From a virus: a stretch of 64,000 nt of DNA. Shown one piece after another: positions 19,934-37,095 of this stretch; position 1 is the first letter of the stretch, and each line of letters starts with the position of its first letter. Made by a program: the position numbers and the translations under genes. The stretch is from the IMG/VR virus record IMGVR_UViG_3300045534_000133, positions 8,326-72,325 of that record; one strand, 5' to 3'. The notes under the pieces are model-generated. The model worked only from the letters and a program-made list of their open reading frames with translations, did no database searches and was not told the origin of the DNA.

Positions 19934-20917
19934 TTAGGAAACGGCGTCCTTGAAGAAGTAGCCCAGCTTGTTGCCGATCAGCTTCTGGGCAAAAGCCATC
20001 TCGATCTCGACGCGGTCGGACTTGAGTTGTTCCATGCGGAACGAACGGATACGGCCGCCGCGCGCACCGGCACCGAGGTGGCCAGTCCACGAGAAAGTGT
20101 AGCCAGCCGACGCGGTTTCGAGACCGGGCTCCGGCGCGCAGTAGGCGAACATGGCATGCTTGCCGCCGATGAAGGCGTGGACGGCCGTTTGGCCTTCCTT
20201 GGCCGTGTTCTCCACCGCGTTCATCACCTCGATCGTTTCGATCTCGAACAGGGCAGCCAGAGCAGCCTTGCTGGCCATGGCCGGGGCACCCGGGGTCTGG
20301 CCGTACTTCACGCGGTCGATCACATCGGGGTGGTCCAGCAGGGCGTCATAGACGGCCCGGCCCAGAACCAGCTTGTTGGGCTCGAAGCCGGTTTCCTGCA
20401 TCATCTCGCGCTTGGCGCGGCGCACGTCCTCGATCGGAGTCGAGGCGGCGTCATCCCAGCGACGGAACTGGGTGCCGGTTTCGCCGGACGCGACACCGGC
20501 CCGCTCGAATCCCCAGACGCCGGTTGCGAAGAAGCTGGTAACGAACAGTTTCTCGCGCTTGATCAGCGCCTTGTTGGTCACGAAGATCGTGGCGTGACGA
20601 TCGGGGGCCAGAACGCTGTCGGCGTTGGCGCGAACTTGGTCGTCGATATCCTTGTGGAAAGCGTAGACCGGCGCGTAGTACTGATCGGTCCCCAGACGGA
20701 AGCCGCCACCCTCGGACTCGGTGCCGGGCGCCCGCACTTTCATTTCGTCGCGGTTGAAGTCGCCCTGATTGAAGGTCCAGAACAAGTCCGACTGCTTCTG
20801 GACCGGAATGTTCGGGAAAATGCTGTCAGCGACGAAGTTGGTCGCGTTCTGCATGTAGGCGACGCTGATGTTGGTCAGCGGAGTGTTGACGTGCACGTCA
20901 CCGGGAGTCGGGTTCAT
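19934..20917 (-). CDS. major capsid protein
   Basis: 'DVHVNTPLTNISVAY', 'PNKLVLG', 'LLDHPDVIDRVKY', 'SAGYTFSW', 'GYFFKDAV'. Confidence 0.9.
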   Translation of the reverse strand: MNPTPGDVHVNTPLTNISVAYMQNATNFVADSIFPNIPVQKQSDLFWTFNQGDFNRDEMKVRAPGTESEGGGFRLGTDQYYAPVYAFHKDIDDQVRANADSVLAPDRHATIFVTNKALIKREKLFVTSFFATGVWGFERAGVASGETGTQFRRWDDAASTPIEDVRRAKREMMQETGFEPNKLVLGRAVYDALLDHPDVIDRVKYGQTPGAPAMASKAALAALFEIETIEVMNAVENTAKEGQTAVHAFIGGKHAMFAYCAPEPGLETASAGYTFSWTGHLGAGARGGRIRSFRMEQLKSDRVEIEMAFAQKLIGNKLGYFFKDAVS

Positions 20918-20991: not shown

Positions 20992-21357
20992 TTACGCGGG
21001 AAGCTGCTTGCCGGAGGTGGTGGTGACGAGGACTTGGAAAATGTCGCCAGCGGCGGCGGCCTCCATGGCCCGGGCGACAACCCAGACGCTGGCACCGGTG
21101 GCCGTGACGAGCGCGCCAGAGCCGTTGCTCATCAGATCAGCGTCCTTGGCGATGTTGCCGCCAGCGACAGCCTTGGACAGGTGTTCGGTGCAGACGGTGG
21201 CGGCTTGGCCGCTGGCCGGGTTGTTCTGCAGGATGCCCAGCGCCTTGGCACCGTTGGCGCACACGGCACCAGCGTTGGTGACGGCGCGGAACTGCTGCGC
21301 GGCCAGATCGGCCGAGGCGATGACGGTGATGTTGCCCTTGGGATTGGCGGTGGTCAT
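20992..21357 (-). CDS. capsid decoration/cement protein
   Basis: Small Ala/Gly beta protein ending 'AMEAAAAGDIFQVLV', just upstream of the capsid gene. Confidence 0.75.
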   Translation of the reverse strand: MTTANPKGNITVIASADLAAQQFRAVTNAGAVCANGAKALGILQNNPASGQAATVCTEHLSKAVAGGNIAKDADLMSNGSGALVTATGASVWVVARAMEAAAAGDIFQVLVTTTSGKQLPA

Positions 21358-21401: not shown

Positions 21402-22454
21402 TTATTGGCCAGCCATCGCGGCGCCAGCGCGGCGCTTGGCCACGATCTGGCCGTACAGGGCGGGGTTGGCGTCGAGCGCGAGGTCGTAGGCTTGGGCTGC
21501 CGAGAGTTCCGGGCGAGCCTTGCGAACTTCGTCCGCCTTGGCCTGCAGGGCAGCCTCGGGGTCGTCCTCGCCGTCAGTACCCTCGGCGACGGCGACACCG
21601 TAGGACTTCATCAGCCCCTTGGCCGCCTTGTTCGTGTCGGCGGCGGAGTACATCGCCTTCTCGACGATGGCGAGCGCATCAGCATCGGCCGCGCGCAGGG
21701 TGCGCAGAGCCTTGCCGACGGCCTCCGGGTCCGCCAAGCCCATCTTGCGGGCCTTGGCCACCTCGGCCTCGTTGTCGCGGGCCTCGCGATCGGCGCGGTT
21801 CTGGACGAACTCGGCGCGCAGGTGTTCCGGCAGGCCCTTGAGAACGACCTCGTCCTGCTCGGCTTGCGTCGGGGCGGGCTTCGACTTGGCGATCTGCTCG
21901 TCCTTGGCGGCCAAAGCGGCGTTGGCCTCGGCCAGAGCGGCCTCGGCAGCCGCAGCACGGCCCTTGGCCACGTTCGTTTCGCCGTTCAGGACTTCAACGC
22001 GGGCCTCAAGGGCGGCGTAGGCGGTGTTCAGTTCCTTGAGGTCCACGACGCTCTCCATAACCATCGACGCGACAGTGTTTGCCGCTGATTTCGCAACCGG
22101 AGAACCGCCGGTTTCGGCTTCGGTCATCAGGCTCGCCACCATGGCATCGCCTTGGGCCAGAAAGTCAGAGACGCTGATCGAGGAGGCTTCAAGCTGTTCG
22201 ACCAGATCGGCGTAGGGCTTGAGTCCCTTCTCGATCAGTTCGGCTTCCGAAACTTGGGCGCCCCCGGGGTGCCACTGACCTTCACTTCGGTCCCGGTTGT
22301 CATACGATTCGTGCGTCTCGGACAGACCCCCTTTGCGAGCCTTGATCACCACAACGTCGGAACCGGGCACGCAGGCCTCGTCCACCAGCGACAGTTCGCC
22401 GATACGCAGGCGCTTGAACACGCGCTTGATTTTCGTCGGAAGTTCCTCGGTCAT
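21402..22454 (-). CDS. capsid scaffolding protein
   Basis: N-terminal 'LRIGELSLVDEAC', coiled-coil body with many [VIL]-x-K sites, C-terminal 'AQAYDLALDANPALY'. Confidence 0.7.
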   Translation of the reverse strand: MTEELPTKIKRVFKRLRIGELSLVDEACVPGSDVVVIKARKGGLSETHESYDNRDRSEGQWHPGGAQVSEAELIEKGLKPYADLVEQLEASSISVSDFLAQGDAMVASLMTEAETGGSPVAKSAANTVASMVMESVVDLKELNTAYAALEARVEVLNGETNVAKGRAAAAEAALAEANAALAAKDEQIAKSKPAPTQAEQDEVVLKGLPEHLRAEFVQNRADREARDNEAEVAKARKMGLADPEAVGKALRTLRAADADALAIVEKAMYSAADTNKAAKGLMKSYGVAVAEGTDGEDDPEAALQAKADEVRKARPELSAAQAYDLALDANPALYGQIVAKRRAGAAMAGQ

Positions 22455-22876
22455 TTCGCCACCGTTGGGTGAAAGCTGCCCCTGCCGCCAAGGCTGAACC
22501 CCTTGAGTTCGCCCCGGACAACCCTGCTTTTGGCGACCGGGCAGTGCACCTCCATGCCCGCCCACCAGCCGCGTTTCTTGTGCGTGATGCCCATGGCCTT
22601 GGCAAAATCATCGTCGATCAGGACGGACTCAACGATCGCGCCGGTCTGCTTGCCGTCGTGCATCACCTTGGCGACGCGTTCTCCAGCCATGAACTCATGC
22701 ACGGCAGTTCGCAGGACCGGCATCGGGCAGACCTCGCCATCCCAGTCCACGTTCACCGGGCGGCCATCGTCGGAGGTTACACAGGCCCAGCCGCGCACGA
22801 ACGAACCGTCCGGCGCAGCCTTCTCGATCTCAAAGTAGAGATGCAGGTCGTCGTCGGTGTCGGTGCCGTCAGTCAT
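22451..22876 (-). CDS. XkdF-like prohead serine protease
   Basis: 'VRGWA', 'VDWDGE', 'KVMH', 'IVES', 'GELKGFSLGG'. Confidence 0.8.
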   Translation of the reverse strand: MTDGTDTDDDLHLYFEIEKAAPDGSFVRGWACVTSDDGRPVNVDWDGEVCPMPVLRTAVHEFMAGERVAKVMHDGKQTGAIVESVLIDDDFAKAMGITHKKRGWWAGMEVHCPVAKSRVVRGELKGFSLGGRGSFHPTVAK

Positions 22877-22938: not shown

Positions 22939-23439
22939 TCAGTCGGCGGACAGAGGCAGGCGGAGGATGGCGTAGACCGACTCCTCAATCATCACGTCGA
23001 GGGCGAACTGGGCTTGCTCGTCGTCCATGCCGTTTTCATGCTTCACCATCAAGTCGAACATGTCACCGGCCAGCCTCGACCAGTAGGCCTGCATGGCCTC
23101 CTCGGGCTCACCAGCGATGCCCACGCTGTCGCCAAAGCCGTACCCCATCTGGTCGGGGCTGTTCCATGGCGTCGTGGCGTAGTCCGGGTTCCGGCCATAG
23201 AAAATGTCGGTCATGGCCTTGGCTTCGGCCTCCACGAACGCCTCGGGGGCCTCGGCTTTGCCTGTTTCGAGATACTTGCGGCGGTAGCCCACCAACCGCG
23301 TTCCAAACGCCCGGACGACAGACTCCACACCCTCGATCGTGTTGAGGGCAGGCCTGTCATCCCCAAGGACCGGCAAGTCCTTGAGGATGATATCGGGCCG
23401 CACTTCGGCGCTGCCGCCGGGATTGGACGAGTCTGTCAT
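22939..23439 (-). CDS. acidic hypothetical protein (candidate immunity or partner of the upstream effector)
   Basis: 166-aa D/E-rich ORF with GAGG RBS, 32 nt after the giant gene. Confidence 0.55.
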   Translation of the reverse strand: MTDSSNPGGSAEVRPDIILKDLPVLGDDRPALNTIEGVESVVRAFGTRLVGYRRKYLETGKAEAPEAFVEAEAKAMTDIFYGRNPDYATTPWNSPDQMGYGFGDSVGIAGEPEEAMQAYWSRLAGDMFDLMVKHENGMDDEQAQFALDVMIEESVYAILRLPLSAD

Positions 23440-23471: not shown

Positions 23472-26400
23472 CTATAGCTTGGTGAGAAGGCTGTTTTTGT
23501 GCGGCGGCAGCAGCGTCACCTCGATCTCAAAGTGGTTGCCCATTTTCTTTGTCCCCAGCAGCACCATGCGAGCGCCGGGCAGAGAAGTCAGTTCCGCCTC
23601 GCTGTCGTAACTGTAGCCGGAGCCCTTGTAGGTCGGCATCATCTTGGCCCCCTTGGCCGCGCGATAGACGATGCGGGCCCGGGTTTTGGGGTCGGAGCCC
23701 GCAAAGCCGGAGGTAGACGTTGGCGACATGCTGTTGCAAGCGCTGCCCGGGTTCTGCAGCACAGTCCCTACTGGCGCTGACAGCAGGGCCGCCTGCATGT
23801 TCGGCTCGACGCGCAGCCACTTGTAGACCGTCGAGCCCTCCGGCAGTTCCACGGCGTCCTTGTGCATGGCGACGTTTGCGGCAACGAGGTCAATGCTGCC
23901 GTGCGTCGTCTTGCCCTGATTGTAGGCATCATTGATGGCGCCAGAGCCCTGCACCGAGTTCATAAATTGCTTGGACAGGGGTGAGGCCTTTTCGCGCAGA
24001 CCCGGGATGCTGTTTTTGAACGAGGCGGGCACCGTCTCGGTGATCGGAGCCTTGGGCAGAAAGTCGGCGCGCTCGCCCTGAACCTGCCCAAGGGCCATCC
24101 AGAAGCCGACGCGCTGGTTCATCGGCATCTGCTTCACCGTCGTCAGCAGGGGCGCCGTCGGGAACGCCTCTGCAATCTTGGCCAGAGAGGCTTTCTTGAT
24201 CGTCTTGGCAGGGACCAGCGGTTTGGGCGGGTTGAACTTGTCGTCCACCGCCTTCATCGTGTCGGACCAGTACCCCTGCATCTTCATTGAGGGGTGAGCC
24301 GAAAACTCTAGCTGCTTGCCCGTCAGTGTGCCCTCGGCGTCGTCAATATGCTCCGGGTACGTCAGGCCTTTCAGCTTGGTCAGGTTGCCTTCGAGGGCAG
24401 CAGCCTCAATCGCATCGACGCTCTGTTGGTTGACCGTGTTTTTCCACGCCTTGGAGGACTTGTCGAAAGTGGGCTTGGGAGGCAGATCGGCCTTCGTGAT
24501 CACCACCTTTTTCGGCTTGGCGGGCGTCGGCTCGACAACCTCAACCACCTCCTCGATCTCGTCGGCGGCAGCAGCGTTCTCGGCAGCACCGGTTAGGGCC
24601 GGGTGGGCCAGCTTTTTCTGCCCCGGGACCACCTTGTGCGGAGAGCCCAGCGCGGCCAGCGCATTGTTCGCCAGCGCAGCCTGCTTTTTGCCGTAGGTGT
24701 TGGTGCCGTAGTTCAGACCGAGGATGCCGGACTTGTTGCCGACATTGGCCAGCTTCTCGATCAGGTCGACCTTGGCGTTGTGGCTGGACGCGTTTGAGTT
24801 CGAGGCGTCCAGCTTGGCCGCCGCGAAGTCGGGCAGGGCGGGCTTCACGGTGTCTGCCGTCAGTTCCGCATACAGGGCGTCGGTGTCGACCGCGCCTTTC
24901 GCCTTTTTCCCGGTGGCGATCTCCCAGTTGGTGGCCATCGCCTTCGCGTAAGCGTTTATGGCCGTGGTGTTCGGCATGCCCGCATCGAGTTCGGTGCCAT
25001 ACAATGTCCCGGCGAGCGCCTTGGCATGTGTCGAGGCCACCGCTCCCGGCCCGCCCGGCCCGTACTTGCTTTGCAGCCACGAAATGCCTTCGGAATAAGC
25101 GTCACCCGGCAGGGTCGGAGGCAGCGGCTGGATGCCATTGCTGCCCAGACGGACAGCCTGCTTGGCGTAGTACTCCGCGCTGATCATGTCGAAGACCACA
25201 GAGGGGGCACCCGACGCGGTCTTTTCGCCCCACTTCGGCGTCACACCGGCCAGCACGTCATGATAGGTGGCCAGCGCCTTGCCGTAGCCGCCCAGAGCAA
25301 CACCTTGCGTGCTGGCTTTGTCGTAAAGATTGTCATTCAAAATGAGTTCGTGAGTGCTTTTTGACGGCGGGAAACCCTCTATGTATTTCTTTTTCAGCCA
25401 GTTCACGTCTTCCGTGTTGCCGTGCATCCCGGGCCCTTTGGGCGCGGTTGGCATCAATCCGTCCTGCGCATCCATGACCGCCAGTTCGGCGTATTCTTGG
25501 GCCGACTTCATGTCGGTGATCTCGGGGTAGCCGGATGATGCGGCCGAAGGTGTGCTGGCCAGCGAGACGCCAGCCGCCATCGTGGTAACGCCGGGCTTGC
25601 CGGTGCCGAACTTGTTGTTGGCCTCCTCAAACTCGCTGGCGGTGTAGAGGTACTTCGCGATGGCGTCTGGTATCTGGGCGATGCTCGCCGGGCTGATGCC
25701 GTCGTGAAACGCCGCAAGCTGGCCGTAGTAGGCCGCCACCTTCATGGCATCCCACTTCGTCTTCCCGTCGGTGTTCATGGCGTTCGTCAGCCATGTGTTG
25801 TTCAGCATGCTCAACATCGGCTTGGCGGCCAAGGTCGCCTTGCCCATGGCCTGCTCGTCGGCCTGTATCGTCGCGATCGACTCGGCGGCCTTCCCGCCGG
25901 GCGACACCACTGGCGGCTCGGCGACGAACGCGCCAGTCTTGGCCGCCACGTCGTACATCGTGCTGGACGCAGCCTGCGGGGCGTCGCTCGCGGCCGGAAG
26001 GTTCATCGGGGCGAGGTTGGCCTTGGCCAGAATCTGGTCCCGGCGTGCCATCAGTTTCGAGGCCAGCTTCTGCTTGGTGTTCTGGCCGTCGTCCACCCAG
26101 TAGGCATCCACCAGCGCGGTGATCTTCTCGTCGGTCATGCCCTTGAGCGCTTCGGCGGAGTCCTGCAGGCCGGTGGCGTTCATGCTGCCAAACAGACCAG
26201 CCGCATCCGCGTTTTTGGCCGGGTCGCGCATCGTTTCCCAGTCCGGTGCACCGGCAGTGAACTCCATGGCCGTCTTCGGTTGGCCTTGGGCGCGGTACAG
26301 CAGGGCGCCGCCCGGGTCGATGTTCACCACCTCGCCGTCTGGCGTCACCAGCAGGTTGTCGCCGCCCATGCCCACCACATCCCAGTTCCCCAGCCACGCA

Positions 26401-29400
26401 TGGACCGCGAACTGCTGCTTGGCCTTGGACCGTTGGCCGGGGGTGCTGATCTTCTGCAGCCCCTCAACCCACTTTGTGGCCACACCCAGACCGCCACCAT
26501 ACTTGCCGCCGAGATCGACCAGCTTGTACTCGGGCGCGGGGATGCCAGCAGCCTCCATCAGTTTGGACGCCAGCACCTCGTTGCGGGCCCGGGCGTCGTC
26601 CTTGCCCTGCAGGTTGCCTTTCACCAGCCACTTCTGGCCGTCGGCGTCCTCGTAGAGGCCCTTGGGAGCCGTGCCGCCGATGCCGTCGCTCTTGATCAGG
26701 GTCCAGCCCGAGATGGACTGCGGCCCCAGCTTGCCGTCGATCACTTTGGCCGACTGGGCCGCCATGCCTTTCCCTTGCCACACGAACATCAGTTCCATGG
26801 CGTACTGCCCGACCTGCGCCTTCCACTTCGTGTGGGAGTTCGTCTTCACGTTCGGATTGAAGGCATCCATGATCGCGAAGTTCTTTTTGTAGAGCGCTGC
26901 AGCCGGGGCAATATCGCCCTTCACAGCAGCATCGAAGACCGCCTTCATCTGGTTATAGTAGGTCGCGTTCGCGCCCGGGCCGGAGCCGTCCTTTTTCCAG
27001 CCGATCTTGGGCGGAGCCGGGTAGCCCCCGGAACCGCCACCTTGGTCCTTGAACTGGCCGCCCAGCGGCGTGCCCTTGGGCCAGCGGTCAACCTTGCTCT
27101 CGTCGAACTTTTTGCGGACCTTCACTCCAGTGAGGTCTTCAAGCGCCTCTACAATCGGGTGGTCCGTGTATCCGTTGTTCAGCCATGTGCGCAGCGTCGA
27201 GACGGGCGCCAGCCGGACAGCCTGCGACTCCCAGCCCATGCGGGCAGGGCTGCCGCCGACGCGCTTGGCCAGATACATGCGGGCCGTTGACGTGGTGCGC
27301 TCGAAGTCGCCCAGAACGCCGGTGATCTCCACCTGCAGACCAGACTCCTCGAACGCTTCCTTGATGGCGTTCGCCTGCAGGCTCGGCACGTCGTCTTCGT
27401 AGGTGCCCTTGGGGAACGTCTGGCGGTAGCCGCCAAAGCCGTTCGTGGGGCTCACAATCCAGACCCGGCCGTCCTCCTCCTGCACGATCACGCCAGCGCC
27501 GATGTTTTTCCCCTTTGGGGCCGTCAGTTCTGGCAGCATGGCTTCAACGGCCGGGTTCTGGCCCGGCACCTTCACCCACTCGGCCGCCGTCTGGGGCGGC
27601 TTGTAGGCCAGCTTCGTGGGGATGCCCTGCAGCACGGCAGGGGCCGGGCTGTTTGGGGTAAACGTCGCCGTGGCGTCCGGGTCGTTCCACACCACCTCGG
27701 GGCTGGCCTTGGACGGGTATTTGACCCAGACCTCGCCACCGTCATCATCGGTGTGCGGGTGCTTCACAGCGCTCGACGGCAGAGAGTACGACTTGTCGGC
27801 ACCAGTGTCGGTTTTCCCGGTCCACTTCGGGCCGGTCTTCGGGCCGTCGAACGGCTTCGTGATGCCGTTGAAATCAAGCGGGTGCTTTGCCTTCGGCTTC
27901 GGCGTGTCGAACAGCGGACCGCTGCTCCACGTCACCTTGGGCTTCGGCGCAGCATCAGACCCGGGCTTCGGCTGGAACTTGCCACCGTCCGGGTGGCCCT
28001 TTGGGGCCCGGGGGTGCATCCACGACTGCCACAGGCCCTTGATGCCCTTGCGCACGCGCTCGATCGCGCTCGGCTCGACGGCAGGCTCAACGGGCTCGCT
28101 GGCCATCGAAAGGGCCATAGCGAAGGCGTCCATCTCGGCACGCAGAGTGCCGGGCTTGGCCTTGGTGATGCCTACGCCTTGGGGGCGGCGGGCTTTGCGC
28201 CCTTCGGCTCGGGCGAGGTATTTGCCGACGAGGGTGGTCGCTTCACTCCGAAGACGACCAGCGGCTTGGCGAAGGGGTGCGGCCCCTTCCGTGGCACCAC
28301 TGGCATAGTCGTATTCCTTTTTGTCAGGGAAGGCCGAATAGGCCTCGTCGGTCGAAATGTCGTATTTACGCTCAAGCTGTGCGTCGATCAAGTCCGCCAG
28401 CTTATCCGTCGGCACACCGCTGTAGTTCAGCACGATCATCTGCCCGTCAGCAGTCGAGTGACCGCCAATCAGGGGTTCGCCATCCTCGCCCTTAATCGCC
28501 CAGAGGCGGTCATACAGGGTGGAAACAGAGGCCAGATCGCGCTCGCTTTCCGGCAGTTCGATCGTGACGATGCCGACCGGCTCCATGCCTTCGGCGGCGG
28601 TTTCGGAAACCACCATCATGCTGTCCTGTGACAGCGCGAAGCCCAGCACCTTGGAGAGTTCGATGGCCTTGGCCGGGTCATCGACGCGAACCGACAGGCT
28701 CGGGTTCGTCGCACCCAGATAGCCGCCGATCTGCTCCGAAAACTCACCCTTGCTGCCGACAGCCTCCAGCGCTTTCGGGACCAGATCGGCCGAAACCGAC
28801 TGGCTGATCTCGAACTTGTCGGCGTCGTCCAGAGCGTTCCAACGTGCCGTCAGACCCGCATCGTTCGGGTCCGGCGCCACCTCGAAAAACACCTTGGCGT
28901 CAGGGTTGCCCCCTATGCCTTGGGAGCCTCCAGCGGTCGTTTGCGGAGCGACACCTGCCCCTCCCGCATCCATTTGGCCCGGGCCTCCATCCGTTCCTCC
29001 GCCGCCGGGCCGTAGGGCCCGTCCCGCCACGAGGTTTTTGACGCCGATGGATTCGGTGATGCGCTCGGAGCCTTGGGGTCCGTTAACGTCGATTTCGGCA
29101 TAGCCGTCCGCCTCTCCCTTGATGGTCTGATATGTGGTTTTGGGCTTGTCGCCGATCGAGGCGAAGTAGCCGGGGTCGATCAGCCGCCCGGTTTTCAAAT
29201 AGCGCGCGGCCATGCGGCGCGCAGCCTCGTCAGGAGTCACCATGACGTGCAACAGCTCGACCGTATAGCCTTCGGATTGGTAGTCGTCAATAAGCCCGGC
29301 CAGTTTTTCTCGGTTGTGGCCGACGACCGGGTAAATGATGTTGGCGCCGCTGGCGCGCAGTTCCATCCCGACAGCATCGCTGATGAACTTGGACTCTTCG

Positions 29401-30086
29401 TGAACGGCTGCAGCGCCAAGACCACCGGCGAACTCGGGCACCAGTTTTTTGGCGTCATCGCTGTCCCAGATCGCGGCGCCCTGCTGCTCGGCCAGCAGTT
29501 CAGACACGGTGGATTTACCGGCGGCCGGAGGCCCCACCACGACCGTCATTTTCCGATCGTAGGCCAGCTTGCCCTTGGCGTAGCCCTTCGCCGTGGCCAC
29601 CAGATCGTCAAGGGTTTCGTCGATATCCTTGCCGCCCGCGTAGGTGCGCCCACCCACGAAGGCCTGCATCTGCTCGTTCGTCATGTCCGGCGTGACCGTC
29701 GGCGTGATCAGCCGCATCTTCTCGGCGGCAGGCTCCAGAGCCGCCATCAGTTCAGCAGCGGGGGCTTTGTCTGCGATCTTCGCCCAGACCGCATCAGCAG
29801 CTTCCTGCCCGATATCCTTGAGGACCGTAGGGTGAGGCTCGCCCGGCATAACCTTGGCAGGGTTGGTCTTGCTTCCGACGAACCCGACCGATGCCATGGC
29901 CTTGCCCTCGCTGCCGTGGCCGCCGGGCTTTTCGACAGCGCCCAAGGCCGGGCCTTCGTTGGGCTTGCCGTCATTGATCTTTCCGTCGCCGTCGCCGTCG
30001 CGAGGGTCGCGCGCCTTGGCGACGCTCTCCTCAACCCGGGCCATCAGGGCGGCTATGCGCTGTCCGAGTTGTTCGCCGTCTGCCAT
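23472..30086 (-). CDS. 2204-aa polyvalent protein: zeta-toxin-like kinase, NUDIX, HipA/PI3K-like kinase, ADP-ribosyltransferase-like
   Basis: GPPAAGKST/DSDDAK/HEES; FPKG...AIKEAFEESGL; WLVK...RNEVLASKL...WLGNWDVVG...NLL...IDPGGAL; VYKW...CNSMS...SEAEL. Confidence 0.8.
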   Translation of the reverse strand: MADGEQLGQRIAALMARVEESVAKARDPRDGDGDGKINDGKPNEGPALGAVEKPGGHGSEGKAMASVGFVGSKTNPAKVMPGEPHPTVLKDIGQEAADAVWAKIADKAPAAELMAALEPAAEKMRLITPTVTPDMTNEQMQAFVGGRTYAGGKDIDETLDDLVATAKGYAKGKLAYDRKMTVVVGPPAAGKSTVSELLAEQQGAAIWDSDDAKKLVPEFAGGLGAAAVHEESKFISDAVGMELRASGANIIYPVVGHNREKLAGLIDDYQSEGYTVELLHVMVTPDEAARRMAARYLKTGRLIDPGYFASIGDKPKTTYQTIKGEADGYAEIDVNGPQGSERITESIGVKNLVAGRALRPGGGGTDGGPGQMDAGGAGVAPQTTAGGSQGIGGNPDAKVFFEVAPDPNDAGLTARWNALDDADKFEISQSVSADLVPKALEAVGSKGEFSEQIGGYLGATNPSLSVRVDDPAKAIELSKVLGFALSQDSMMVVSETAAEGMEPVGIVTIELPESERDLASVSTLYDRLWAIKGEDGEPLIGGHSTADGQMIVLNYSGVPTDKLADLIDAQLERKYDISTDEAYSAFPDKKEYDYASGATEGAAPLRQAAGRLRSEATTLVGKYLARAEGRKARRPQGVGITKAKPGTLRAEMDAFAMALSMASEPVEPAVEPSAIERVRKGIKGLWQSWMHPRAPKGHPDGGKFQPKPGSDAAPKPKVTWSSGPLFDTPKPKAKHPLDFNGITKPFDGPKTGPKWTGKTDTGADKSYSLPSSAVKHPHTDDDGGEVWVKYPSKASPEVVWNDPDATATFTPNSPAPAVLQGIPTKLAYKPPQTAAEWVKVPGQNPAVEAMLPELTAPKGKNIGAGVIVQEEDGRVWIVSPTNGFGGYRQTFPKGTYEDDVPSLQANAIKEAFEESGLQVEITGVLGDFERTTSTARMYLAKRVGGSPARMGWESQAVRLAPVSTLRTWLNNGYTDHPIVEALEDLTGVKVRKKFDESKVDRWPKGTPLGGQFKDQGGGSGGYPAPPKIGWKKDGSGPGANATYYNQMKAVFDAAVKGDIAPAAALYKKNFAIMDAFNPNVKTNSHTKWKAQVGQYAMELMFVWQGKGMAAQSAKVIDGKLGPQSISGWTLIKSDGIGGTAPKGLYEDADGQKWLVKGNLQGKDDARARNEVLASKLMEAAGIPAPEYKLVDLGGKYGGGLGVATKWVEGLQKISTPGQRSKAKQQFAVHAWLGNWDVVGMGGDNLLVTPDGEVVNIDPGGALLYRAQGQPKTAMEFTAGAPDWETMRDPAKNADAAGLFGSMNATGLQDSAEALKGMTDEKITALVDAYWVDDGQNTKQKLASKLMARRDQILAKANLAPMNLPAASDAPQAASSTMYDVAAKTGAFVAEPPVVSPGGKAAESIATIQADEQAMGKATLAAKPMLSMLNNTWLTNAMNTDGKTKWDAMKVAAYYGQLAAFHDGISPASIAQIPDAIAKYLYTASEFEEANNKFGTGKPGVTTMAAGVSLASTPSAASSGYPEITDMKSAQEYAELAVMDAQDGLMPTAPKGPGMHGNTEDVNWLKKKYIEGFPPSKSTHELILNDNLYDKASTQGVALGGYGKALATYHDVLAGVTPKWGEKTASGAPSVVFDMISAEYYAKQAVRLGSNGIQPLPPTLPGDAYSEGISWLQSKYGPGGPGAVASTHAKALAGTLYGTELDAGMPNTTAINAYAKAMATNWEIATGKKAKGAVDTDALYAELTADTVKPALPDFAAAKLDASNSNASSHNAKVDLIEKLANVGNKSGILGLNYGTNTYGKKQAALANNALAALGSPHKVVPGQKKLAHPALTGAAENAAAADEIEEVVEVVEPTPAKPKKVVITKADLPPKPTFDKSSKAWKNTVNQQSVDAIEAAALEGNLTKLKGLTYPEHIDDAEGTLTGKQLEFSAHPSMKMQGYWSDTMKAVDDKFNPPKPLVPAKTIKKASLAKIAEAFPTAPLLTTVKQMPMNQRVGFWMALGQVQGERADFLPKAPITETVPASFKNSIPGLREKASPLSKQFMNSVQGSGAINDAYNQGKTTHGSIDLVAANVAMHKDAVELPEGSTVYKWLRVEPNMQAALLSAPVGTVLQNPGSACNSMSPTSTSGFAGSDPKTRARIVYRAAKGAKMMPTYKGSGYSYDSEAELTSLPGARMVLLGTKKMGNHFEIEVTLLPPHKNSLLTKL

Positions 30087-30116
30087 GGTGGCCCCCTGAT
30101 TCCGTGCAGCGAGCCT

Positions 30117-30293
30117 ATGCGAACGACGGACGACTTGACAGCCTACCGTCGCCTCACCGGTCTCGCTCGCGCGCTTGGCGAGGAGGCTGACGACTGCATG
30201 TCGCCGATCACCGCCGCCGCGTTCAGGGCAGCGTCTCACTTCCTCACCCGTCTGGCCAGCGCCGTTTACACCAAGGGGCTCAAGCTGGACTGA
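30117..30293 (+). CDS. possible 58-aa antisense ORF
   Basis: MRTTDDLTAYRRL...KGLKLD fills the gap between MuF and the giant gene; weak RBS. Confidence 0.3.
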   Translation: MRTTDDLTAYRRLTGLARALGEEADDCMSPITAAAFRAASHFLTRLASAVYTKGLKLD

Positions 30294-31416
30294 CAGGCTT
30301 CGGCGGCTCGATCGTGCGAATAAACTGGGTGCAACGACAGTTGGGATGAATAGGCGGCATCATCACCGGCCCCACGGGCGTGGCGAAGGGCTGGGCGAAC
30401 TTCACACCCTGTGGCGGGTTCATGCCCGGGACCGGCGCGCACACCTCGCACAGGCGCTCGTCGGCGGCCACCACCCACCGGCGGCGGACCAAGTCCTCCG
30501 ACAGCAGGCCCTTCTCGATCGCCTGCCTGAAAGCCTCCTGAATCCCCATGTTGGTGGCGCGCAGGCTCTCCGTGCGGGCAATCGTGCGGGACCGGAACTG
30601 CAGGTATTTGCGCTTGTAGGCCGCCACCATCTTGTCGATCTGGGCAGGCGTCAGGGGCTTTTTCGTTGCCTGCGCCTTCGCGAGCGCGGCGTCGTACCGG
30701 AAATCGCGCAGGCGGCGGTTCAGGATGCCGTCTTTCGGGTCGCCGTCGATACCGGGCTTGAACACCTGCCGCCCGTTCACCCGGTCGATCTGCTGGCCCA
30801 ACCCCCAACTTGCTGCAGACCGTTTCAGGTGAAAGGTTTCGAGTTCTTTTCGGAAGTTCCCGATCGCGTTGGCTTGTCGTGTGGTGAGCCCAATGGCTTC
30901 TCTGATTTTTTGGGCCTGCTTAATGGGGCCCTGACCGACACGCATGTTTTCCACCAGCACATCACGGATGGTCTCGCGCGTCGTGCCGCTGATCTGTTTG
31001 ATGAGGCCAAGGTCATACTCCTGCAGCCAACGGGTGAGAGCGGGATTGATGCGATCGAAGTGGAACTCTGCCCGGCCGATGAACGGTGCCGTCCCGGGGG
31101 CCGCCAAGGCCTCAATCCCGGCCGCCCAGACCGCATCCTGCAGGGCGTCTTTCATCTTGCCCGCCATCATGGCTTCGGCCTGATCGGCGGCGGCTCCCAC
31201 TACGGCCAGAACCTTGTCGCCCTGCCCAGATAGCAGCGCCTCTAACAGGGCATCCATATCCAGCATGTCGCCGTGCGCCTGCAGGAGGTCGAGAACGGCC
31301 TTGGCGATCTGCGGCTCAAACTTCTCGGCCAGCTTCTCGGCCAGCGACAGGTCTTCCGGCTTGACCTTGGCTACGGCGTGATCGTGCCCGCACAGTCTGG
31401 AAAATGTCAGCTTCAT
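30280..31416 (-). CDS. MuF / SPP1 gp7-like head morphogenesis protein
   Basis: 'RSRTIARTE', 'RRWVVAADERLCEVC', 'PPIHPNCRCT'. Confidence 0.9.
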   Translation of the reverse strand: MKLTFSRLCGHDHAVAKVKPEDLSLAEKLAEKFEPQIAKAVLDLLQAHGDMLDMDALLEALLSGQGDKVLAVVGAAADQAEAMMAGKMKDALQDAVWAAGIEALAAPGTAPFIGRAEFHFDRINPALTRWLQEYDLGLIKQISGTTRETIRDVLVENMRVGQGPIKQAQKIREAIGLTTRQANAIGNFRKELETFHLKRSAASWGLGQQIDRVNGRQVFKPGIDGDPKDGILNRRLRDFRYDAALAKAQATKKPLTPAQIDKMVAAYKRKYLQFRSRTIARTESLRATNMGIQEAFRQAIEKGLLSEDLVRRRWVVAADERLCEVCAPVPGMNPPQGVKFAQPFATPVGPVMMPPIHPNCRCTQFIRTIEPPKPVSPA

Positions 31417-31486
31417 AATATCTGCCCTTGACGCCAGAACACTGCTCGCTTACCCATGCTCTAGCTTTATTCGCTTGGGAGGCGAC

Positions 31487-31600
31487 ATGACACAGAAACC
31501 TAACCGGCGCGGCCCCGCTGCGCCATCCCTCGCATGGGCGCCTCTGCAGGCGTTCGTGATCTTCGGCTTTATTGCCGCCATCTGGGCCATTCTGGCCTGA
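31487..31600 (+). CDS. 37-aa membrane peptide
   Basis: GGGAGG RBS; MTQKPNRRGPAAPSLAWAPLQAFVIFGFIAAIWAILA; first gene of the + strand block. Confidence 0.55.
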   Translation: MTQKPNRRGPAAPSLAWAPLQAFVIFGFIAAIWAILA

Positions 31601-31623
31601 CCCCTTCACAGGAAACCACCACG

Positions 31624-32376
31624 ATGAGCAAGCAACCGAACCTGCCCGGAACGGCGCCGGTCAAAAAGAAGCAGTACACCGAATATCCGGGGCGCCGCTG
31701 CCCGCATGCGGTGAACCGCCCTCTGCCCCACATCAAATATCAGATTGAAAACCTGCCGGGGTTCCGCACTGTCCTGCAGCAAACCGGCCTTAGTGTCGCC
31801 TCAACCGGCCACTCCGCTGCGCGTCGCATTTTGGGGGCTCACGTCAAACACGGGACCGACTACGCGGTGTTTGTTGACGAGAACGGTTACGGCGGTTTCG
31901 TGCCGAAACCGGGCACCATTCCCGAGGGCGCACGCCTGACGAACCCAAACATTTGCCAATGGGCCTTGCCCAAGCCGGTCCCCACCGCTGTGGTGCACGG
32001 GGTGGTGCATGGGAATGACTCGACCTTCCCTCCCACCTGCACCGGCGCAATCCGGCCTGATCGCCCCGACCTGAAACCGTCGGAGTGGGCCAAAGCCCTG
32101 ACAGCGGTGGTGGGCGCGATCAATCCGGTGACGTTCCGCTATGGCCGGAACGTCACCGACGAGACGGTGGCCGAGAGCGTTGGACTTCCGGTCGCCGCCA
32201 TCACCTTGACCCGCCTTGAGGAATACGGCGAGCCGGTGCCCACGGTTAGCCCGGCCGAGTTAATCGCCCTGCGCAATGAGGCTACCTCACGGGCCGAGGC
32301 GTTCCTGAAATACGCCGCTGACGAGGAAACCTTCGCCGCCCGCATGAACGCCGCCCTCGCGAAACTGGGAGCCTGA
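31624..32376 (+). CDS. hypothetical protein
   Basis: AGGA RBS; MSKQPNLPG..., 250 aa. Confidence 0.65.
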   Translation: MSKQPNLPGTAPVKKKQYTEYPGRRCPHAVNRPLPHIKYQIENLPGFRTVLQQTGLSVASTGHSAARRILGAHVKHGTDYAVFVDENGYGGFVPKPGTIPEGARLTNPNICQWALPKPVPTAVVHGVVHGNDSTFPPTCTGAIRPDRPDLKPSEWAKALTAVVGAINPVTFRYGRNVTDETVAESVGLPVAAITLTRLEEYGEPVPTVSPAELIALRNEATSRAEAFLKYAADEETFAARMNAALAKLGA

Positions 32377-32378
32377 TC

Positions 32379-32771
32379 ATGGCCAACACTCCCATCAGAG
32401 ACGCCAAGCGCGCCGCCACCCGGGCGAAGATCGAGACGGCAGCCAAGGCCGTGTTCGACGCCAAAGGCTGGGAGGGCGGCGGCATCCGCCTGATCGCCGA
32501 GACGGCTGGCGTGTCCATCGGTGCCATCTTCGCCATCTGGCCTGACGGCAAGCGGGCCCTCTGGAGCGAGATTATCAAGACCGAGCCGCCGGTGGACGGA
32601 GCGCTCTGGCGCTCCGCCCCGGGCATGCTGGCCATCCTTCGGGCCCTGCAGGCAGCGGAGGACATGAATCAGGCCGTCGGGCTCAAGGCTATGACTACTG
32701 AAACCCGCGTGGCGATTGACGCCATCGTGGCCAGCGCCACCACCCCCATGCCGTTCGAGGTGGGCCGATGA
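32379..32771 (+). CDS. TetR-family HTH regulator
   Basis: 'TRAKIETAAKAVFDAKGWEGGGIRLIAETAGVSIGAIFAIWPDGKRAL'. Confidence 0.8.
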   Translation: MANTPIRDAKRAATRAKIETAAKAVFDAKGWEGGGIRLIAETAGVSIGAIFAIWPDGKRALWSEIIKTEPPVDGALWRSAPGMLAILRALQAAEDMNQAVGLKAMTTETRVAIDAIVASATTPMPFEVGR

Positions 32772-33130
32772 ACCCGGCCCCCGAGAGCGCATCCTACCCC
32801 GTCGCGGGCGCCGCCGTGGCGTGCGGCGTCGATATCGGCATGGCGCAGCGCTACTGCTGGGCCAACCGGGTGTGGCTGCTGAACCCTTCCGGGCCGACGC
32901 GCCGGGCTTTGGAGGGGGCCTACAATGCCATCCTGCAGGTGTACGGCGACCAGACCACGGCCGCCCTGCAGGAGCGGCTGGAGGCGGCTATCATGGAGGA
33001 CCGCATCTACTGGCCGGTCCCGGGCTGGAAAGAGGCGATGGCCGGGCAGCCTGATCGGCCCCTGCCCGACGTGGACCGCACTGATGACGACGGCGTGGAG
33101 CCGCCGGAGCAGCCGGAGCCGATCGAGTAG
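32768..33130 (+). CDS. hypothetical protein
   Basis: ATGA-coupled ORF with acidic tail. Confidence 0.6.
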   Translation: MNPAPESASYPVAGAAVACGVDIGMAQRYCWANRVWLLNPSGPTRRALEGAYNAILQVYGDQTTAALQERLEAAIMEDRIYWPVPGWKEAMAGQPDRPLPDVDRTDDDGVEPPEQPEPIE

Positions 33131-33199
33131 CGAAGCCGGGGCTGTCCATTTTTGTCAGCTATGCTATGGAGGGCCCCCGGCTCTGCAACAGGTGAACCC

Positions 33200-33397
33200 G
33201 TGACTGAATCCGCCAAACCCAAGGCCCGCCGTGGCTTCGCCTGCATGGACCCGGCCCGCGTCGCCGAGATCGCAGCCAAGGGTGGTCGCTCTGTGCCGGA
33301 CGAGAAGCGTTCATTCTCGAAAGACCGCACACTGGCCGAGACCTCCGGCCGCAAGGGAGGCCTCGCTGGGGCCGGGAAAACGAAAAAGCCGGTCTGA
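33200..33397 (+). CDS. KGG-repeat stress protein (YciG/con-10-like)
   Basis: 'RGFACMDPARVAEIAAKGG', 'RSFSKDRTLAETSGRKGG'. Confidence 0.85.
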   Translation: MTESAKPKARRGFACMDPARVAEIAAKGGRSVPDEKRSFSKDRTLAETSGRKGGLAGAGKTKKPV

Positions 33398-33475
33398 TCA
33401 TTTTCCCGCTTGCTATATCAGTTCTCTGATATATGTTCCTCCCATAGCCTAGCTATCACTTGGGAGTGAAACGAC

Positions 33476-33679
33476 ATGATCACCTACGAAAAGCGAACCT
33501 TCGGGAAGGTTCCGGCCAAGACCGAGTATGTGGTGCGCCTTGATCGCCGCATGGTGGGCCGCATCCGGCCGTTCGAGGGCGGCTACCGCTACGAGCCCAA
33601 GGGCGCGCTCAACAGCATGATGGGCGCAACCTTCCCCACTGTCGCCGCCGCCAAGGCCTCGATCGAGGGCACCGACTGA
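33476..33679 (+). CDS. hypothetical protein
   Basis: GGGAG RBS, 67 aa. Confidence 0.6.
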   Translation: MITYEKRTFGKVPAKTEYVVRLDRRMVGRIRPFEGGYRYEPKGALNSMMGATFPTVAAAKASIEGTD

Positions 33680-34101
33680 TGGACGCCCTGAATACCCTTT
33701 CCATCACTGACCAGTTCGTTGTGCTGCGTCAGTTCATCGGCACCGACAAACAGCCCTACAGGGGCCTCCCGGGGCCTGTGATGGTCTTCCGGGTTAACGC
33801 GCTGCAGGCCAAGCCCAGTGAGCCCGAGGACGCCCTGTTTGAGCCCCCGGTGCGCCGCATCGACCTGCGCTCCGACGATCGCATCCGCTTCACCGAGCAA
33901 GGTGCCGACGTGAAAACCGAACCGCGCGGCGCAAGGCCTTGGCTGCAGGCTCACCCGGCTGCCATGGGCCGCGCCAACGGCGCCTGCATCGTGCGCCTCA
34001 CGTCGGAGGGGCGGCGTCGGCTGGCCCTGCTGAACGACCTGATCGAGACACATCAGGCAGCCCCATCATCCGTCCACGAACTGATATCTGCATTGTCGTA
34101 A
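33679..34101 (+). CDS. hypothetical protein
   Basis: TGATG-coupled ORF. Confidence 0.55.
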   Translation: MDALNTLSITDQFVVLRQFIGTDKQPYRGLPGPVMVFRVNALQAKPSEPEDALFEPPVRRIDLRSDDRIRFTEQGADVKTEPRGARPWLQAHPAAMGRANGACIVRLTSEGRRRLALLNDLIETHQAAPSSVHELISALS

Positions 34102-34145
34102 CAGCTAGAGCGTGCCACCGTATCACTTCACAGAGGAACAACCCC

Positions 34146-34343
34146 ATGATCGACATGCAAGACCCTCGCGACCACCGCCGTGTGGCCGCCATGACTACCG
34201 ACCAAGCCAGCCACAGAGGCTGGGACTTCCGCCCGTGCGACGAGCCGCCGCTGTGGTTCAGGGCCGTGGCCGAGGTGCTGCGTCCGCGCAGCCTCATCAT
34301 CTTGGCTGCAATGGCCGGGGTTATCAGCCTGTGGTTTCTGTGA
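34146..34343 (+). CDS. small membrane protein
   Basis: GAGGA RBS; hydrophobic C-terminal helix. Confidence 0.55.
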   Translation: MIDMQDPRDHRRVAAMTTDQASHRGWDFRPCDEPPLWFRAVAEVLRPRSLIILAAMAGVISLWFL

Positions 34344-34549
34344 TGGAAAAAGTTCAGTTGCAGTTACCGACGACGCCATACCCGCTCGCCACCGCGCCGG
34401 TTTACGACCGGACCCGCGATGAGTTTGCAATGGCCGCACTGACGGGGCTTTTGGCGGCTCGCTCATACGACACCACTGACGGTCTTGTTTATGCAGCAAC
34501 CGCCTACACCCTTGCCGACGCCATGCTTAAGCAGAGAGAAGCATCATGA
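34343..34549 (+). CDS. small phage protein with 'RDEFAMAAL...AYTLADAML' motif
   Basis: Motif widespread in small phage early proteins. Confidence 0.7.
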   Translation: MEKVQLQLPTTPYPLATAPVYDRTRDEFAMAALTGLLAARSYDTTDGLVYAATAYTLADAMLKQREAS

Positions 34550-34755
34550 CCTCGGATGCCACATACACCACGTCGGGCGCCAGCATGACGTTGACGCCGG
34601 GCCAGACCATTTTCATCAACGGAAAGCGCCATGTGGTCCGCGAGGTCTTCACGCACACGTTCACGGCGGACCCCGACACTCGCAATCACCAGACACGGCG
34701 GGTTGATCGCGCGAAAGCCCGCGCCGCCGCCAAGTCCAAGAGGAAAGCATCATGA
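34546..34755 (+). CDS. hypothetical basic protein
   Basis: ATGA-coupled ORF. Confidence 0.55.
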   Translation: MTSDATYTTSGASMTLTPGQTIFINGKRHVVREVFTHTFTADPDTRNHQTRRVDRAKARAAAKSKRKAS

Positions 34756-35414
34756 CCCCCGACGAACTCCCCGCTGATATGGAGGGGCGCACCCCTGCAC
34801 CAGAGGGGGAGGCCCTTTTGTGTCGCCTGTGTTCAATGGGTTTGAAGGAGTGCGATTGCATCTCCGAACCCCGCTACGCATCCCCTGTCGTTCCTGCACC
34901 AGAGGGGGTGTTTGTTAGCGAGACTTGCGAAGGTGAAGTCTGCTGGTGCGGAAAGCCTGCGGTCCGAAAGGTCGGGGAGGAGTTTGCGGATGACGAGCCG
35001 AACCCTAACCGCCACAACCTCACTCGGTATATCTGCGCCCACCACTTCGCTGAACTCATGGGGCCAGCGGGGGCGCGGTCTGTCGGCATTGCCCCTGTCG
35101 TTCCGGTAGGGAGCGGGGAGGCGGTGGCGCGAGCCACCTGTCAAGACTGCGGTGGCCATATCGAGGGCTGGATTTGCCAATCGTGCGACCGTCAGTTCCG
35201 GGAAAACGACGCGGGCAAACTCGTTTTTGAGGACCAGCCTGTCGTTCCGGTAGGGGTGAGCAGGGAGGAGATTATCAAGGCCGTTCGTCCGGTTCTAGAC
35301 CGGCACCCAATGATCGACAGCAGCCAGTCGCACAAGCTGGACATTCAAGCCGGGTGGGTGGCCGACGCCGTCCTCGCAGCCCTTACAGGAGAAGACCCCA
35401 GAGGGGCAGGGTGA
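34752..35414 (+). CDS. modular Cys-rich protein with PVVP linker repeats
   Basis: Three Cys clusters separated by CCTGTCGTTCC repeats. Confidence 0.65.
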   Translation: MTPDELPADMEGRTPAPEGEALLCRLCSMGLKECDCISEPRYASPVVPAPEGVFVSETCEGEVCWCGKPAVRKVGEEFADDEPNPNRHNLTRYICAHHFAELMGPAGARSVGIAPVVPVGSGEAVARATCQDCGGHIEGWICQSCDRQFRENDAGKLVFEDQPVVPVGVSREEIIKAVRPVLDRHPMIDSSQSHKLDIQAGWVADAVLAALTGEDPRGAG

Positions 35415-35611
35415 CCAGCCGCGTCGCGCGCTGGTACGCCACCGACGGCGAACTGGACTTCCTCTGGGAGGCCTACGTCCATGAGGGCCAGCACAGGGCC
35501 CGGCTGACGGTGATCTGCAGCTACCCCGGGGACTCTGCAACCGGCACCGGGGCGAACGACAACGAGGCCCTATGGAGCGCGTGGGCCGCTTATCAGGACA
35601 GACCACAATGA
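35411..35611 (+). CDS. hypothetical protein
   Basis: GTGA-coupled ORF. Confidence 0.5.
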   Translation: MTSRVARWYATDGELDFLWEAYVHEGQHRARLTVICSYPGDSATGTGANDNEALWSAWAAYQDRPQ

Positions 35612-35994
35612 AGCGGTGCGAGCGAGAAGCCGTCGATATCATCCGGTCCATGCTGGAACCTCACGGCATCACATGCCGGACAGAACCGGGCGGCAAGCAC
35701 CTTGCCGTCCACGTCGATCACAACGGCGGCCACCACAAGTTCGCCATCTCCAGCAGTCCCCTGAATCGGGACCACCAGCTTACAAACGTGCGTCAGCAGG
35801 TGACCGGCTGGATGGAGGCACAAGGCCTCGTCCCCGCGCGCGGGAGGGCTGCACAGAGGCCTAACAAGCGGAGGCGACAAACCCGGGTAAAGTCCACCAT
35901 CTATCGCTACGAGGTGTCCATCGACGAAGCCGATCACGGCCCGTCCAGCGACCCTTGGCGGGCGTTGCGGGCCCTACAGGGGCAAGAGGCATGA
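35608..35994 (+). CDS. HicA-like fold protein
   Basis: helix, then 'GITCRTEPGGKHLAV', 'ISSSP', helix. Confidence 0.45.
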   Translation: MKRCEREAVDIIRSMLEPHGITCRTEPGGKHLAVHVDHNGGHHKFAISSSPLNRDHQLTNVRQQVTGWMEAQGLVPARGRAAQRPNKRRRQTRVKSTIYRYEVSIDEADHGPSSDPWRALRALQGQEA

Positions 35995-36728: not shown

Positions 36729-36826
36729 AATATCAGGGTTGCAATATATCTCAAGGTGTGTTATAATAGCCTCACTGGCCAATCGGGCCAGCGACTGTTC
36801 TTTCATACCGTGAATAGGAATACACG

Positions 36827-37060
36827 ATGGTAAAGCTGCCAAAGGTTATTGCACGCCCGGACGATCACTACATGATCATCTGCCCCGGCTACTGGGGTAA
36901 GGGCGAAACCCTCGCCGCCGCCCGCAAGGCCTTGCCGTTCTCTCTTGACGAGGACCGCTGGGTTATTCAGTCGGTGCACCCCAGCACTAGGCTCGATGGA
37001 GACGGCTACCTCGTGCGCGACGGCGGCACTCACGCCCCGCTCGAACTGGCCCGCTCCTGA
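36827..37060 (+). CDS. hypothetical protein
   Basis: AGGA RBS; preceded by an AT-rich promoter-like stretch (TTGCAA...TATAAT, ~36740-36768). Confidence 0.6.
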   Translation: MVKLPKVIARPDDHYMIICPGYWGKGETLAAARKALPFSLDEDRWVIQSVHPSTRLDGDGYLVRDGGTHAPLELARS

Positions 37061-37066
37061 CGGCCC

Positions 37067-37095
37067 GGCCCCCGGCTCACCCCGGGGGCCATTTT
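37067..37095 (+). terminator. intrinsic terminator
   Basis: GGCCCCCGG-CTCAC-CCGGGGGCC then ATTTT. Confidence 0.6.

Follow-up and report, generated by a model that had tools for sequence, protein, structure and literature searches.

Proteins injected together with phage DNA are at work before the phage expresses a gene of its own, and thus set the outcome of infection against host defences. To our knowledge, very few of them have been studied at the bench, namely T4 Alt, the Dar proteins of P1 and the N4 virion RNA polymerase. T4 Alt, an effector of about 70 kDa with one domain, is an ADP-ribosyltransferase (ART) of the R-S-E type which the head carries and which enters the cell along with the DNA; P1 DarB carries methyltransferase and helicase domains. 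Here, a 64,000-nucleotide (nt) stretch of viral DNA (positions 8,326 to 72,325 of IMG/VR record IMGVR_UViG_3300045534_000133) was analysed as a whole and is called the window hereafter; it comes from a virus record of 72,325 bases, 8.3 kb of which lie outside it. The gene in question, labelled BIG in this analysis, encodes a protein of 2204 amino acids (aa) belonging to the polyvalent proteins, a class already described between 2017 and 2022. BIG is probably a polyvalent effector that is made late, loaded into the capsid and released with the DNA into the next host.

Polyvalent proteins were presented as phage late-gene products that join many unrelated enzymatic domains, from two to fifteen of disparate activity per polypeptide, and that are predicted to enter the cell with the DNA (Iyer, Burroughs, Anand, de Souza, Aravind 2017, PMC5512222). 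A later survey (Iyer et al. 2022, PMC9503650) reports Nudix domains fused to MuF, portal or capsid protease, as well as Alt/VIP2 ARTs fused to MuF, all predicted to be packaged and injected. Among the MuF polymorphic toxins, a class of temperate phages and prophages in which the toxin domain shares its polypeptide with an N-terminal MuF domain, ARTs accounted for 14% of 191 MuF toxins, and an open reading frame (ORF) of small size lay downstream, according to Jamet et al. (2017, PMC5576092). The 2811-aa polyvalent protein gp47 of phi24B was found to be abundant in virions by proteomics, according to a preprint (bioRxiv 10.64898/2026.04.10.717836). A preliminary description of the window, made from its letters alone, had not recognised the domain combination of BIG, which overstated its novelty: the class is that of the polyvalent proteins (PMC5512222), and fusions of Nudix and Alt/VIP2 domains to head proteins are reported in PMC9503650.

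Domain architecture of BIG

The frame of BIG was unbroken on the minus strand from 23472 to 30239 (ORF analysis). The 51 Arg-rich codons that follow an upstream GTG have a non-coding look; the true start is likely the ATG at 30086, which has a GGGGG ribosome-binding site before it and yields 2204 aa, and the start region is also kept in the related viral contig L001. GC content at third codon positions (GC3) was 0.81, similar to that of adjacent phage genes. Three near-full-length relatives (P0003, P0004, P0005) displayed 71-79% identity by BLAST, and a search of genome contigs with the whole BIG protein returned 32 pattern matches, none of which was confirmed. Long low-complexity Pro/Lys/Gly linkers are present in BIG, together with the following features, listed from the N- to the C-terminus:

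23472..30086, minus strand: BIG, gene of the 2204-aa polyvalent protein (ORF and start; stop codon included)
29112..29552, minus strand: zeta-toxin-type P-loop kinase domain, residues 179-325 (Pfam PF06414)
28191..28814, minus strand: module B, an alpha/beta domain, residues 425-632 (BLAST, AlphaFold2 (AF2), BFVD)
27942..28067, minus strand: junction motif copy 1, residues 674-715, a helix and HPRAPKGHPDGGKF (N-terminal profile, independent E-value (i-E) 2.8e-10)
27192..27506, minus strand: NUDIX hydrolase domain, residues 861-965 (Pfam PF00293)
26988..27125, minus strand: junction motif copy 2, residues 988-1033, RWPKGTPLGGQF and then a Gly-rich run (N-terminal profile, i-E 7.5e-12)
26022..26723, minus strand: atypical protein-kinase-like domain, nearest to HipA/CtkA, residues ~1122-1355 (fold match and invariant residues)
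24873..25520, minus strand: tandem pair of ~108-aa repeat units, residues 1523-1738, inside a helical region of low conservation (Smith-Waterman)
23475..24854, minus strand: conserved C-terminal module, residues 1745-2204 (alignment of 22 sequences)
~23487-24029, minus strand: ART of the VIP2/Alt type, last ~180 residues (~2020-2200) (family profile against PDB)

The preliminary description had read from this frame a 2204-aa protein at 23472-30086 with a zeta-toxin-like P-loop kinase, an unknown alpha/beta domain, a NUDIX domain, a HipA/PI3K-like kinase and a C-terminal ART-like domain. The ORF is real, the nucleotide coordinates given for every domain all convert to recovered residues, and a check segment by segment, by Pfam, family profiles against PDB and AF2 fold matching, recovered each testable domain.

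The zeta-type domain matched Zeta_toxin (PF06414, residues 179-325) with an E-value (E) of 5.4e-16 and 59.1 bits, against a cut-off of 22.3. A family profile of five sequences found the zeta toxin 1gvn in PDB (E 0.0011, positions 18-155, about 140 positions), and the Walker A motif GPPAAGKST, DSDDAKK and HEES were invariant in all five aligned sequences. The choice of the catalytic Asp of this domain is our assumption. No antitoxin of the epsilon/PezA type was identified, no search having been aimed at one.

Module B was 34-48% identical by BLAST to inner stretches of proteins of 2000-3400 aa (P0049-P0078), and the proteins sharing it carry PF18760 (ART-PolyVal) and PF18857 (LPD38). Its AF2 model was confident, with a predicted local distance difference test (pLDDT) of 86.5, so that the alpha/beta domain expected between the zeta kinase and NUDIX folds as such over residues 425-632. 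At E <= 0.001, this fold had no match in PDB and 14 in BFVD; the top one, with a template modelling score (TM) of 0.87, was part of an uncultured-phage protein, and several were named 'Large polyvalent protein associated domain'. Pfam held no family for module B, and the protein atlas no usable match. Two other candidates were set aside. The module B profile aligned in PDB with 63 residues of the UG15 reverse transcriptase (E 0.0017), which is marginal and was treated as chance; S-AdoMet_lyase appeared at E 0.032 in 2 of 11 members only, and was rejected because no S-adenosylmethionine lyase figured among the 50 PDB fold matches listed.

The NUDIX domain scored 32.6 bits with PF00293 (cut-off 21.1) and aligned with the Ap4A hydrolase 3i7u (E 2.9e-4). 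The Nudix box has the form GX5EX7REUXEEXGU. When aligned to 3i7u, the box of BIG reads GTYEDDVPSLQANAIKEAFEESGL (G-x..-KEAFEESGL), where EE and the preceding E are kept, Lys replaces Arg, and one inserted residue shifts the first Glu out of place.

A conserved junction motif flanks NUDIX, one copy on each side, and is new in this analysis. It consists of a helix, then (R/H)(W/H)PxGxPxGG(Q/K)F, then a Gly-rich run. The profile that detects both copies derives from the N-terminal ends of 34 short homologs. The shorter homologs, among them P0006-P0045, usually have one copy of the motif near the N-terminus and another between NUDIX and the kinase; as a regular expression, it was present in 42 of 94 homologs and in none of 94 shuffles. 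Since the motifs inside BIG match the N-termini of short homologs, BIG can be read as an N-terminal extension, made of a leader, the zeta kinase and module B, set before a complete protein of the P0007 type. The motif itself is a candidate processing or docking site. The same profile gave a non-significant 2.5 bits on the N-terminus of BIG itself, which leaves a packaging signal shared at the N-terminus unsupported.

The kinase-like domain displayed an AF2 model with a pLDDT of 85.9, whose best PDB fold match was CtkA of H. pylori (3akl, 3akk; TM 0.56-0.58, E 1.8e-6), followed by HipT, LepB, PI4KIIalpha, actin-fragmin kinase and eukaryotic-type kinases. In total, 197 PDB matches were obtained at E <= 0.001, nearly all of those listed being kinases, and the model thus places the domain in a kinase-like fold of the HipA/CtkA/PI3-4K branch. 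Residues K1156, E1170, D1236, N1244 and D1257 were invariant in all 21 aligned sequences. It is on the fold and on these five residues that the HipA/PI3K-like assignment stands: HipA_C (PF07804) stayed below its cut-off on BIG (20-23.8 bits against 30.5) and gave such sub-threshold matches in only 4 of 21 family members, and the 21-sequence profile reached PDB entries at chance level only (best E 0.081). Among homologs of about 1530 aa (P0062-P0064), some carry two copies of the kinase-like domain, and P0062 and P0063 also carry DRAT (PF07357).

The helical repeats announced downstream of the kinase were reduced to one tandem pair, with no further repeats supported. Residues 1523-1630 and 1631-1738 aligned with a Smith-Waterman score of 126, against 29.6 +/- 5.5 for shuffles (z = 17.7, a score reached by none of 300 shuffles); a BLAST self-comparison of residues 1380-1760 returned no repeat. 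P0003 and P0004 vary in length at this site.

The C-terminal ART was recovered at the family level. The 22-sequence profile matched Vip2 in PDB (3.7e-14), then Vis, CdtA, C2-I, iota Ia and C3, and PF03496 was found at the aligned C-terminal place in 7 of 11 homologs scanned. In the 22-row alignment, the two Glu of the ExE motif (E2163 and E2165) were invariant and S2119 nearly so. The Arg column held Arg in 18 of 22 rows and Lys in BIG (K2089) and three others, so that BIG departs from the Arg-Ser-ExE signature of Alt/VIP2 ARTs by this one residue. Lys stands there in BIG and five of the six closest relatives printed, and its retention argues against decay and for a stable K-S-E variant instead of a one-off lesion. 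The C-terminal domain is therefore classed as an ART of this fold with a K-S-E variant signature, and its activity is a prediction from these residues.

Relatives of BIG and fusions to head proteins

In the phage collection, 27 records matched parts of BIG and none covered 80% of it. Cultured relatives were phages of Pseudomonas putida (such as Dolphis and Jeremy), Aeromonas (such as ST4) and enterobacteria. Modules of BIG were also found fused to head proteins: P0047 joins Phage_portal_3 to NUDIX, kinase and ART, P0051 joins MuF to NUDIX and kinase, and P0046 joins DUF2213 to NUDIX, kinase and ART; precomputed Pfam entries assign PF04233 (MuF) to P0080, P0082 and P0084. The cassette accepts other domains as well. 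The anti-CBASS protein Acb1 is inserted in it in P0035 (2.6e-35), PF23474 is listed for P0041-P0043, and a WGR domain lies within the cassette of some relatives.

In the Yersinia phage fHe-Yen8-01, gene 129 encodes a 2146-aa 'ADP-ribosyltransferase toxin' that is annotated as 'phage particle associated protein'. The two genes following it are also annotated as particle-associated, with matches to BIG residues 764-1422.

Partner gene p166

A small gene, labelled p166 in this analysis, lies directly downstream of BIG:

22939..23439, minus strand: p166, 166-aa partner protein (conserved linkage)

The C-terminal-module profile gathered 40 IMG/VR loci. In 27 of the 35 that had at least 600 nt of downstream sequence, a p166 homolog started between -19 and +574 nt from the stop of the big gene (24 with a strict filter, and three overlapping the stop by 3-19 nt). 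The homolog also follows the C-terminal module on other phage backbones (L020, L022, L038, L041, L044).

The p166 family, which is new in this analysis, encompassed 920 representatives at E <= 0.001 and 535 at 1e-10 among 1.84 billion clusters, mostly stand-alone proteins of 150-190 aa. Ten longer representatives were picked from the 150 listed, and four of them (P0102, P0125, P0149, P0224) were fusions of p166 with a homolog of the NUDIX domain found in the BIG family. Together, neighbourhood and fusion indicate that p166 belongs to the BIG system and is linked to NUDIX. No Pfam match was obtained for p166, and no PDB relative by profile (best E 0.13). Prediction of a complex between p166 and the C-terminal module gave 0.29, 0.32 and 0.52 in three runs, with a top control at 0.14, and did not reach the required margin.

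The head operon and its surroundings

BIG and p166 are located in the head module, whose genes are all on the minus strand save an antisense gene, in the order MuF, antisense gene, BIG, p166, S78 protease, p387, scaffold, major capsid protein (MCP), tail genes and tape measure:

30280..31416, minus strand: MuF head-morphogenesis gene (phrog_3517, 8.3e-51; Pfam Phage_Mu_F, 40.9 bits against 29.6)
30117..30293, plus strand: 58-aa antisense gene between MuF and BIG (conservation in L001; GC3 0.80)
22451..22876, minus strand: prohead protease, Peptidase_S78_2 (PF14550), XkdF type (30.2 bits against 24; kept in related loci)
21402-22565, minus strand: 387-aa protein, p387 (PHROGs and synteny)
20992-21357, minus strand: scaffold-like 121-aa protein (PHROGs and synteny)
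19934-20917, minus strand: MCP (PHROGs and synteny)

The location between MuF and the prohead protease given in the preliminary description thus stands as to the head operon, but the 166-aa gene at 22939-23439 separates BIG from the protease. Synteny of the head module holds in the IMG/VR loci and in the Pseudomonas phage KPP23, and 20 of the 29 IMG/VR loci whose upstream sequence spans at least 1500 nt have MuF on that side, on the same strand. In KPP23, whose MCP is 59% identical, MuF is directly followed by a protease-like gene and there is no BIG, which makes BIG and p166 an accessory insertion in the head operon. In L017, about 4 kb of extra sequence (~9907-13876) lie between p166 and the protease, and the slot there appears to take additional cargo genes.

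The antisense ORF overlaps the MuF stop by 14 nt and encodes a helical-looking product. It shares 55 of 58 residues with its counterpart in L001 despite about 13 nucleotide differences, and relatives of 40-43% identity occupy the same antisense strand in L012, L024, L025, L026, L031 and L034. This pattern of conservation marks it as a real gene, which could be a regulator or an antitoxin.

Several other features of the window were recorded. The protease and p387 ORFs overlap by 115 nt in different frames, reflecting either a later start of the 387-aa gene or a frameshift that joins protease and scaffold. The head module is split, with about 14 kb (31416-45094) between MuF and a Mu-type portal gene (45094-46656), compared with about 7 kb in L001; this gap holds mostly small plus-strand genes, including a DNA methyltransferase (35955-36728), as well as an 842-aa minus-strand ORF (41824-44352) that matched no family. 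The tape measure gene (11067-15149, minus strand) contains an inner metallo-endopeptidase-like segment at residues 531-646 (phrog_7767, 1.1e-17). A 2852-aa tail protein (770-9328, minus strand), which is a central tail fibre or host-specificity protein of very large size, matches gpJ FNIII-A, Fn3 and Phage-tail_3. In the minus-strand region 52661-55624, a ParB-like domain is fused to a DNA methyltransferase (54317-55624) and a second methyltransferase is encoded at 52661-53476; a RecE/RecT-like recombination pair lies on the plus strand at 61565-63692. Among the ORFs scanned, which cover part of the window, there was neither an integrase nor a repressor.

Proposed role of BIG

Packaging and injection appear to be the best reading of BIG. 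Under this reading, BIG would be made late together with the head proteins and loaded into the procapsid, then released with the DNA into the next host cell, where its enzyme domains would act in the first minutes of infection. The zeta-type P-loop kinase may phosphorylate a small molecule of the nucleotide-sugar or NAD type. NUDIX would cleave a nucleoside diphosphate linked to another moiety (NDP-X), for example ADP-ribose, a NAD-derived signal or another nucleotide signal. The HipA/CtkA-like kinase may phosphorylate host proteins, and the VIP2/Alt-type transferase may ADP-ribosylate them, as T4 Alt does. The S78 protease encoded next door could process BIG at the two junction motifs, and the overall role would be anti-defence or host takeover, the Acb1 insertion of P0035 providing a link to anti-defence.

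The preliminary description had likewise proposed packaged enzymes delivered at infection. Of the readings considered, this one is the best supported, by the late head operon, the fusions to head proteins and the annotation of fHe-Yen8-01, although we infer the packaging of BIG itself from its head-operon position and its relatives. Other points also weigh against it. MuF is a separate gene upstream of BIG, the 193-nt spacer between them holding a gene on the opposite strand, and a Pfam MuF domain was found in none of five records that carry the C-terminal module on other backbones (including L020, L022, L038 and L044). The particle annotation of fHe-Yen8-01, which is the sole virion evidence for a relative, comes from GenBank only, no paper having been found. 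The ART sequence of BIG on its own gave no Pfam or PDB match, and the Lys-for-Arg replacements make the activity of the ART, as well as that of NUDIX, not certain. The substrates of all BIG domains are likewise inferred.

A more specific form of the packaged-effector reading is possible but rather doubtful. The core of junction, NUDIX, junction, kinase and ART, together with p166, would constitute an undescribed and widespread injected counter-defence cassette directed against immunity that relies on NAD+/ADP-ribose or nucleotide signals. In such a cassette, p166 would be a loader or regulator of NUDIX, and the S78 protease would cut the precursor inside the capsid at the two RWPxGxPxGGQF junctions.

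Alternatively, BIG could be a MuF-type polymorphic toxin, delivered to kill or inhibit competitor bacteria without immunity, with p166, and perhaps the antisense gene, as the immunity protein that shields lysogens. The MuF locus, a C-terminal ART of the toxin type and a zeta-toxin domain all speak for it, and a small conserved gene directly downstream, in 27 of 35 loci, occupies the place of immunity genes in MuF toxins (PMC5576092). We nevertheless hold this to be unlikely: MuF is absent from the BIG polypeptide, which therefore falls outside the MuF polymorphic toxins as strictly defined. Fusion of p166 to NUDIX, seen in 4 of the 10 longer representatives examined, would be expected of a working partner more than of an ART inhibitor, p166 stays while the ART subtype varies, and neither integrase nor repressor figured among the ORFs covered by the partial scan (with 8.3 kb of the record outside the window).

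BIG might also be a late cytoplasmic enzyme set that is never packaged and that remodels metabolism or blocks defence signalling in the producing cell, its operon position simply reflecting late timing. Such a role is improbable given that portal, MuF and DUF2213 head proteins occur with these modules attached and that a relative is annotated as particle-associated in fHe-Yen8-01; besides, an Alt-like ART and Acb1-type counter-defence would be needed at entry, and late-only action would make little sense for them. It nonetheless agrees with the cultured-phage relatives, which are divided among several genes close to those for terminase and tail fibre instead of occupying a MuF slot, and with BIG itself being tied to the capsid by gene position only.

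A mainly structural protein, that is an internal head or ejection protein which aids DNA exit or forms an envelope conduit and whose enzyme-like domains are secondary or partly inactive, would account for the large size, the Pro/Lys/Gly linkers, the helical repeat region and the Lys-for-Arg changes in both ART and NUDIX box, and has a precedent in the conduit interpretation proposed for phi24B gp47, but we give it little credence, since the catalytic set of the kinase, the ExE and the Walker A and Asp motifs are invariant, the Nudix glutamates are kept, and phages of the KPP23 type, whose head and tail genes are the same, lack BIG, which is therefore not a required structural part.

Comparison with known systems

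BIG resembles the polyvalent class in that the zeta kinase, module B, NUDIX, kinase and ART are joined in one polypeptide, which is phage-encoded among virion and late genes, and in that module B is common to proteins bearing ART-PolyVal and LPD38. Zeta-toxin-like kinases and a kinase family are among the domains given in PMC5512222; that kinase family comes from phages of Verrucomicrobia-Chlamydia and Bacteroidetes and, by its description there, is without the whole C-terminal subdomain. The metallopeptidase (MPTase) hub domain of polyvalent proteins was not found in BIG by Pfam scan. As for the later survey, the text of PMC9503650 contains none of the terms 'HipA', 'WGR' and 'protein kinase', and neither the Nudix, kinase and ART core nor the 166-aa partner is mentioned in the passages compared.

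For the kinase-like domain, CtkA and HipT provided the nearest folds (CtkA, TM 0.56-0.58; HipT 8ezr, TM 0.42-0.45), with the same K/E/D/N/D residues. However, CtkA, HipA and HipT share only 12-15% identity with the BIG kinase, with no significant match by PDB profile.

T4 Alt offers a functional model for the C-terminal domain, its ART being of the same fold class. BIG differs from it by the Lys at the Arg position and by an ART that ends a 2204-aa protein; the likeness is one of fold class. With the MuF polymorphic toxins, BIG shares the locus, a toxin-type C-terminal domain and a small downstream ORF, but it has five or more domains where those have one toxin domain, and its downstream gene also occurs fused to NUDIX. 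P1 DarB, to which the preliminary description had likened BIG, holds as a functional analogy without a domain in common. Like phi24B gp47, DarB is a very large capsid-carried protein; no domain shared with BIG was detected in either, and LPD5, LPD1, LPD38 and MuF-C of gp47 are absent from BIG.

The polyvalent concept, as set out between 2017 and 2022, is unchanged by BIG. What is worth following in this locus is the p166 family, module B, the junction motif, the K-S-E transferase and the kinase family without a Pfam entry. With four enzyme domains, a module B that has no solved relative, the p166 family and a possible processing motif, it constitutes a compact and well-delimited test case; and since cultured relatives exist, packaging, substrates and counter-defence roles are directly testable.

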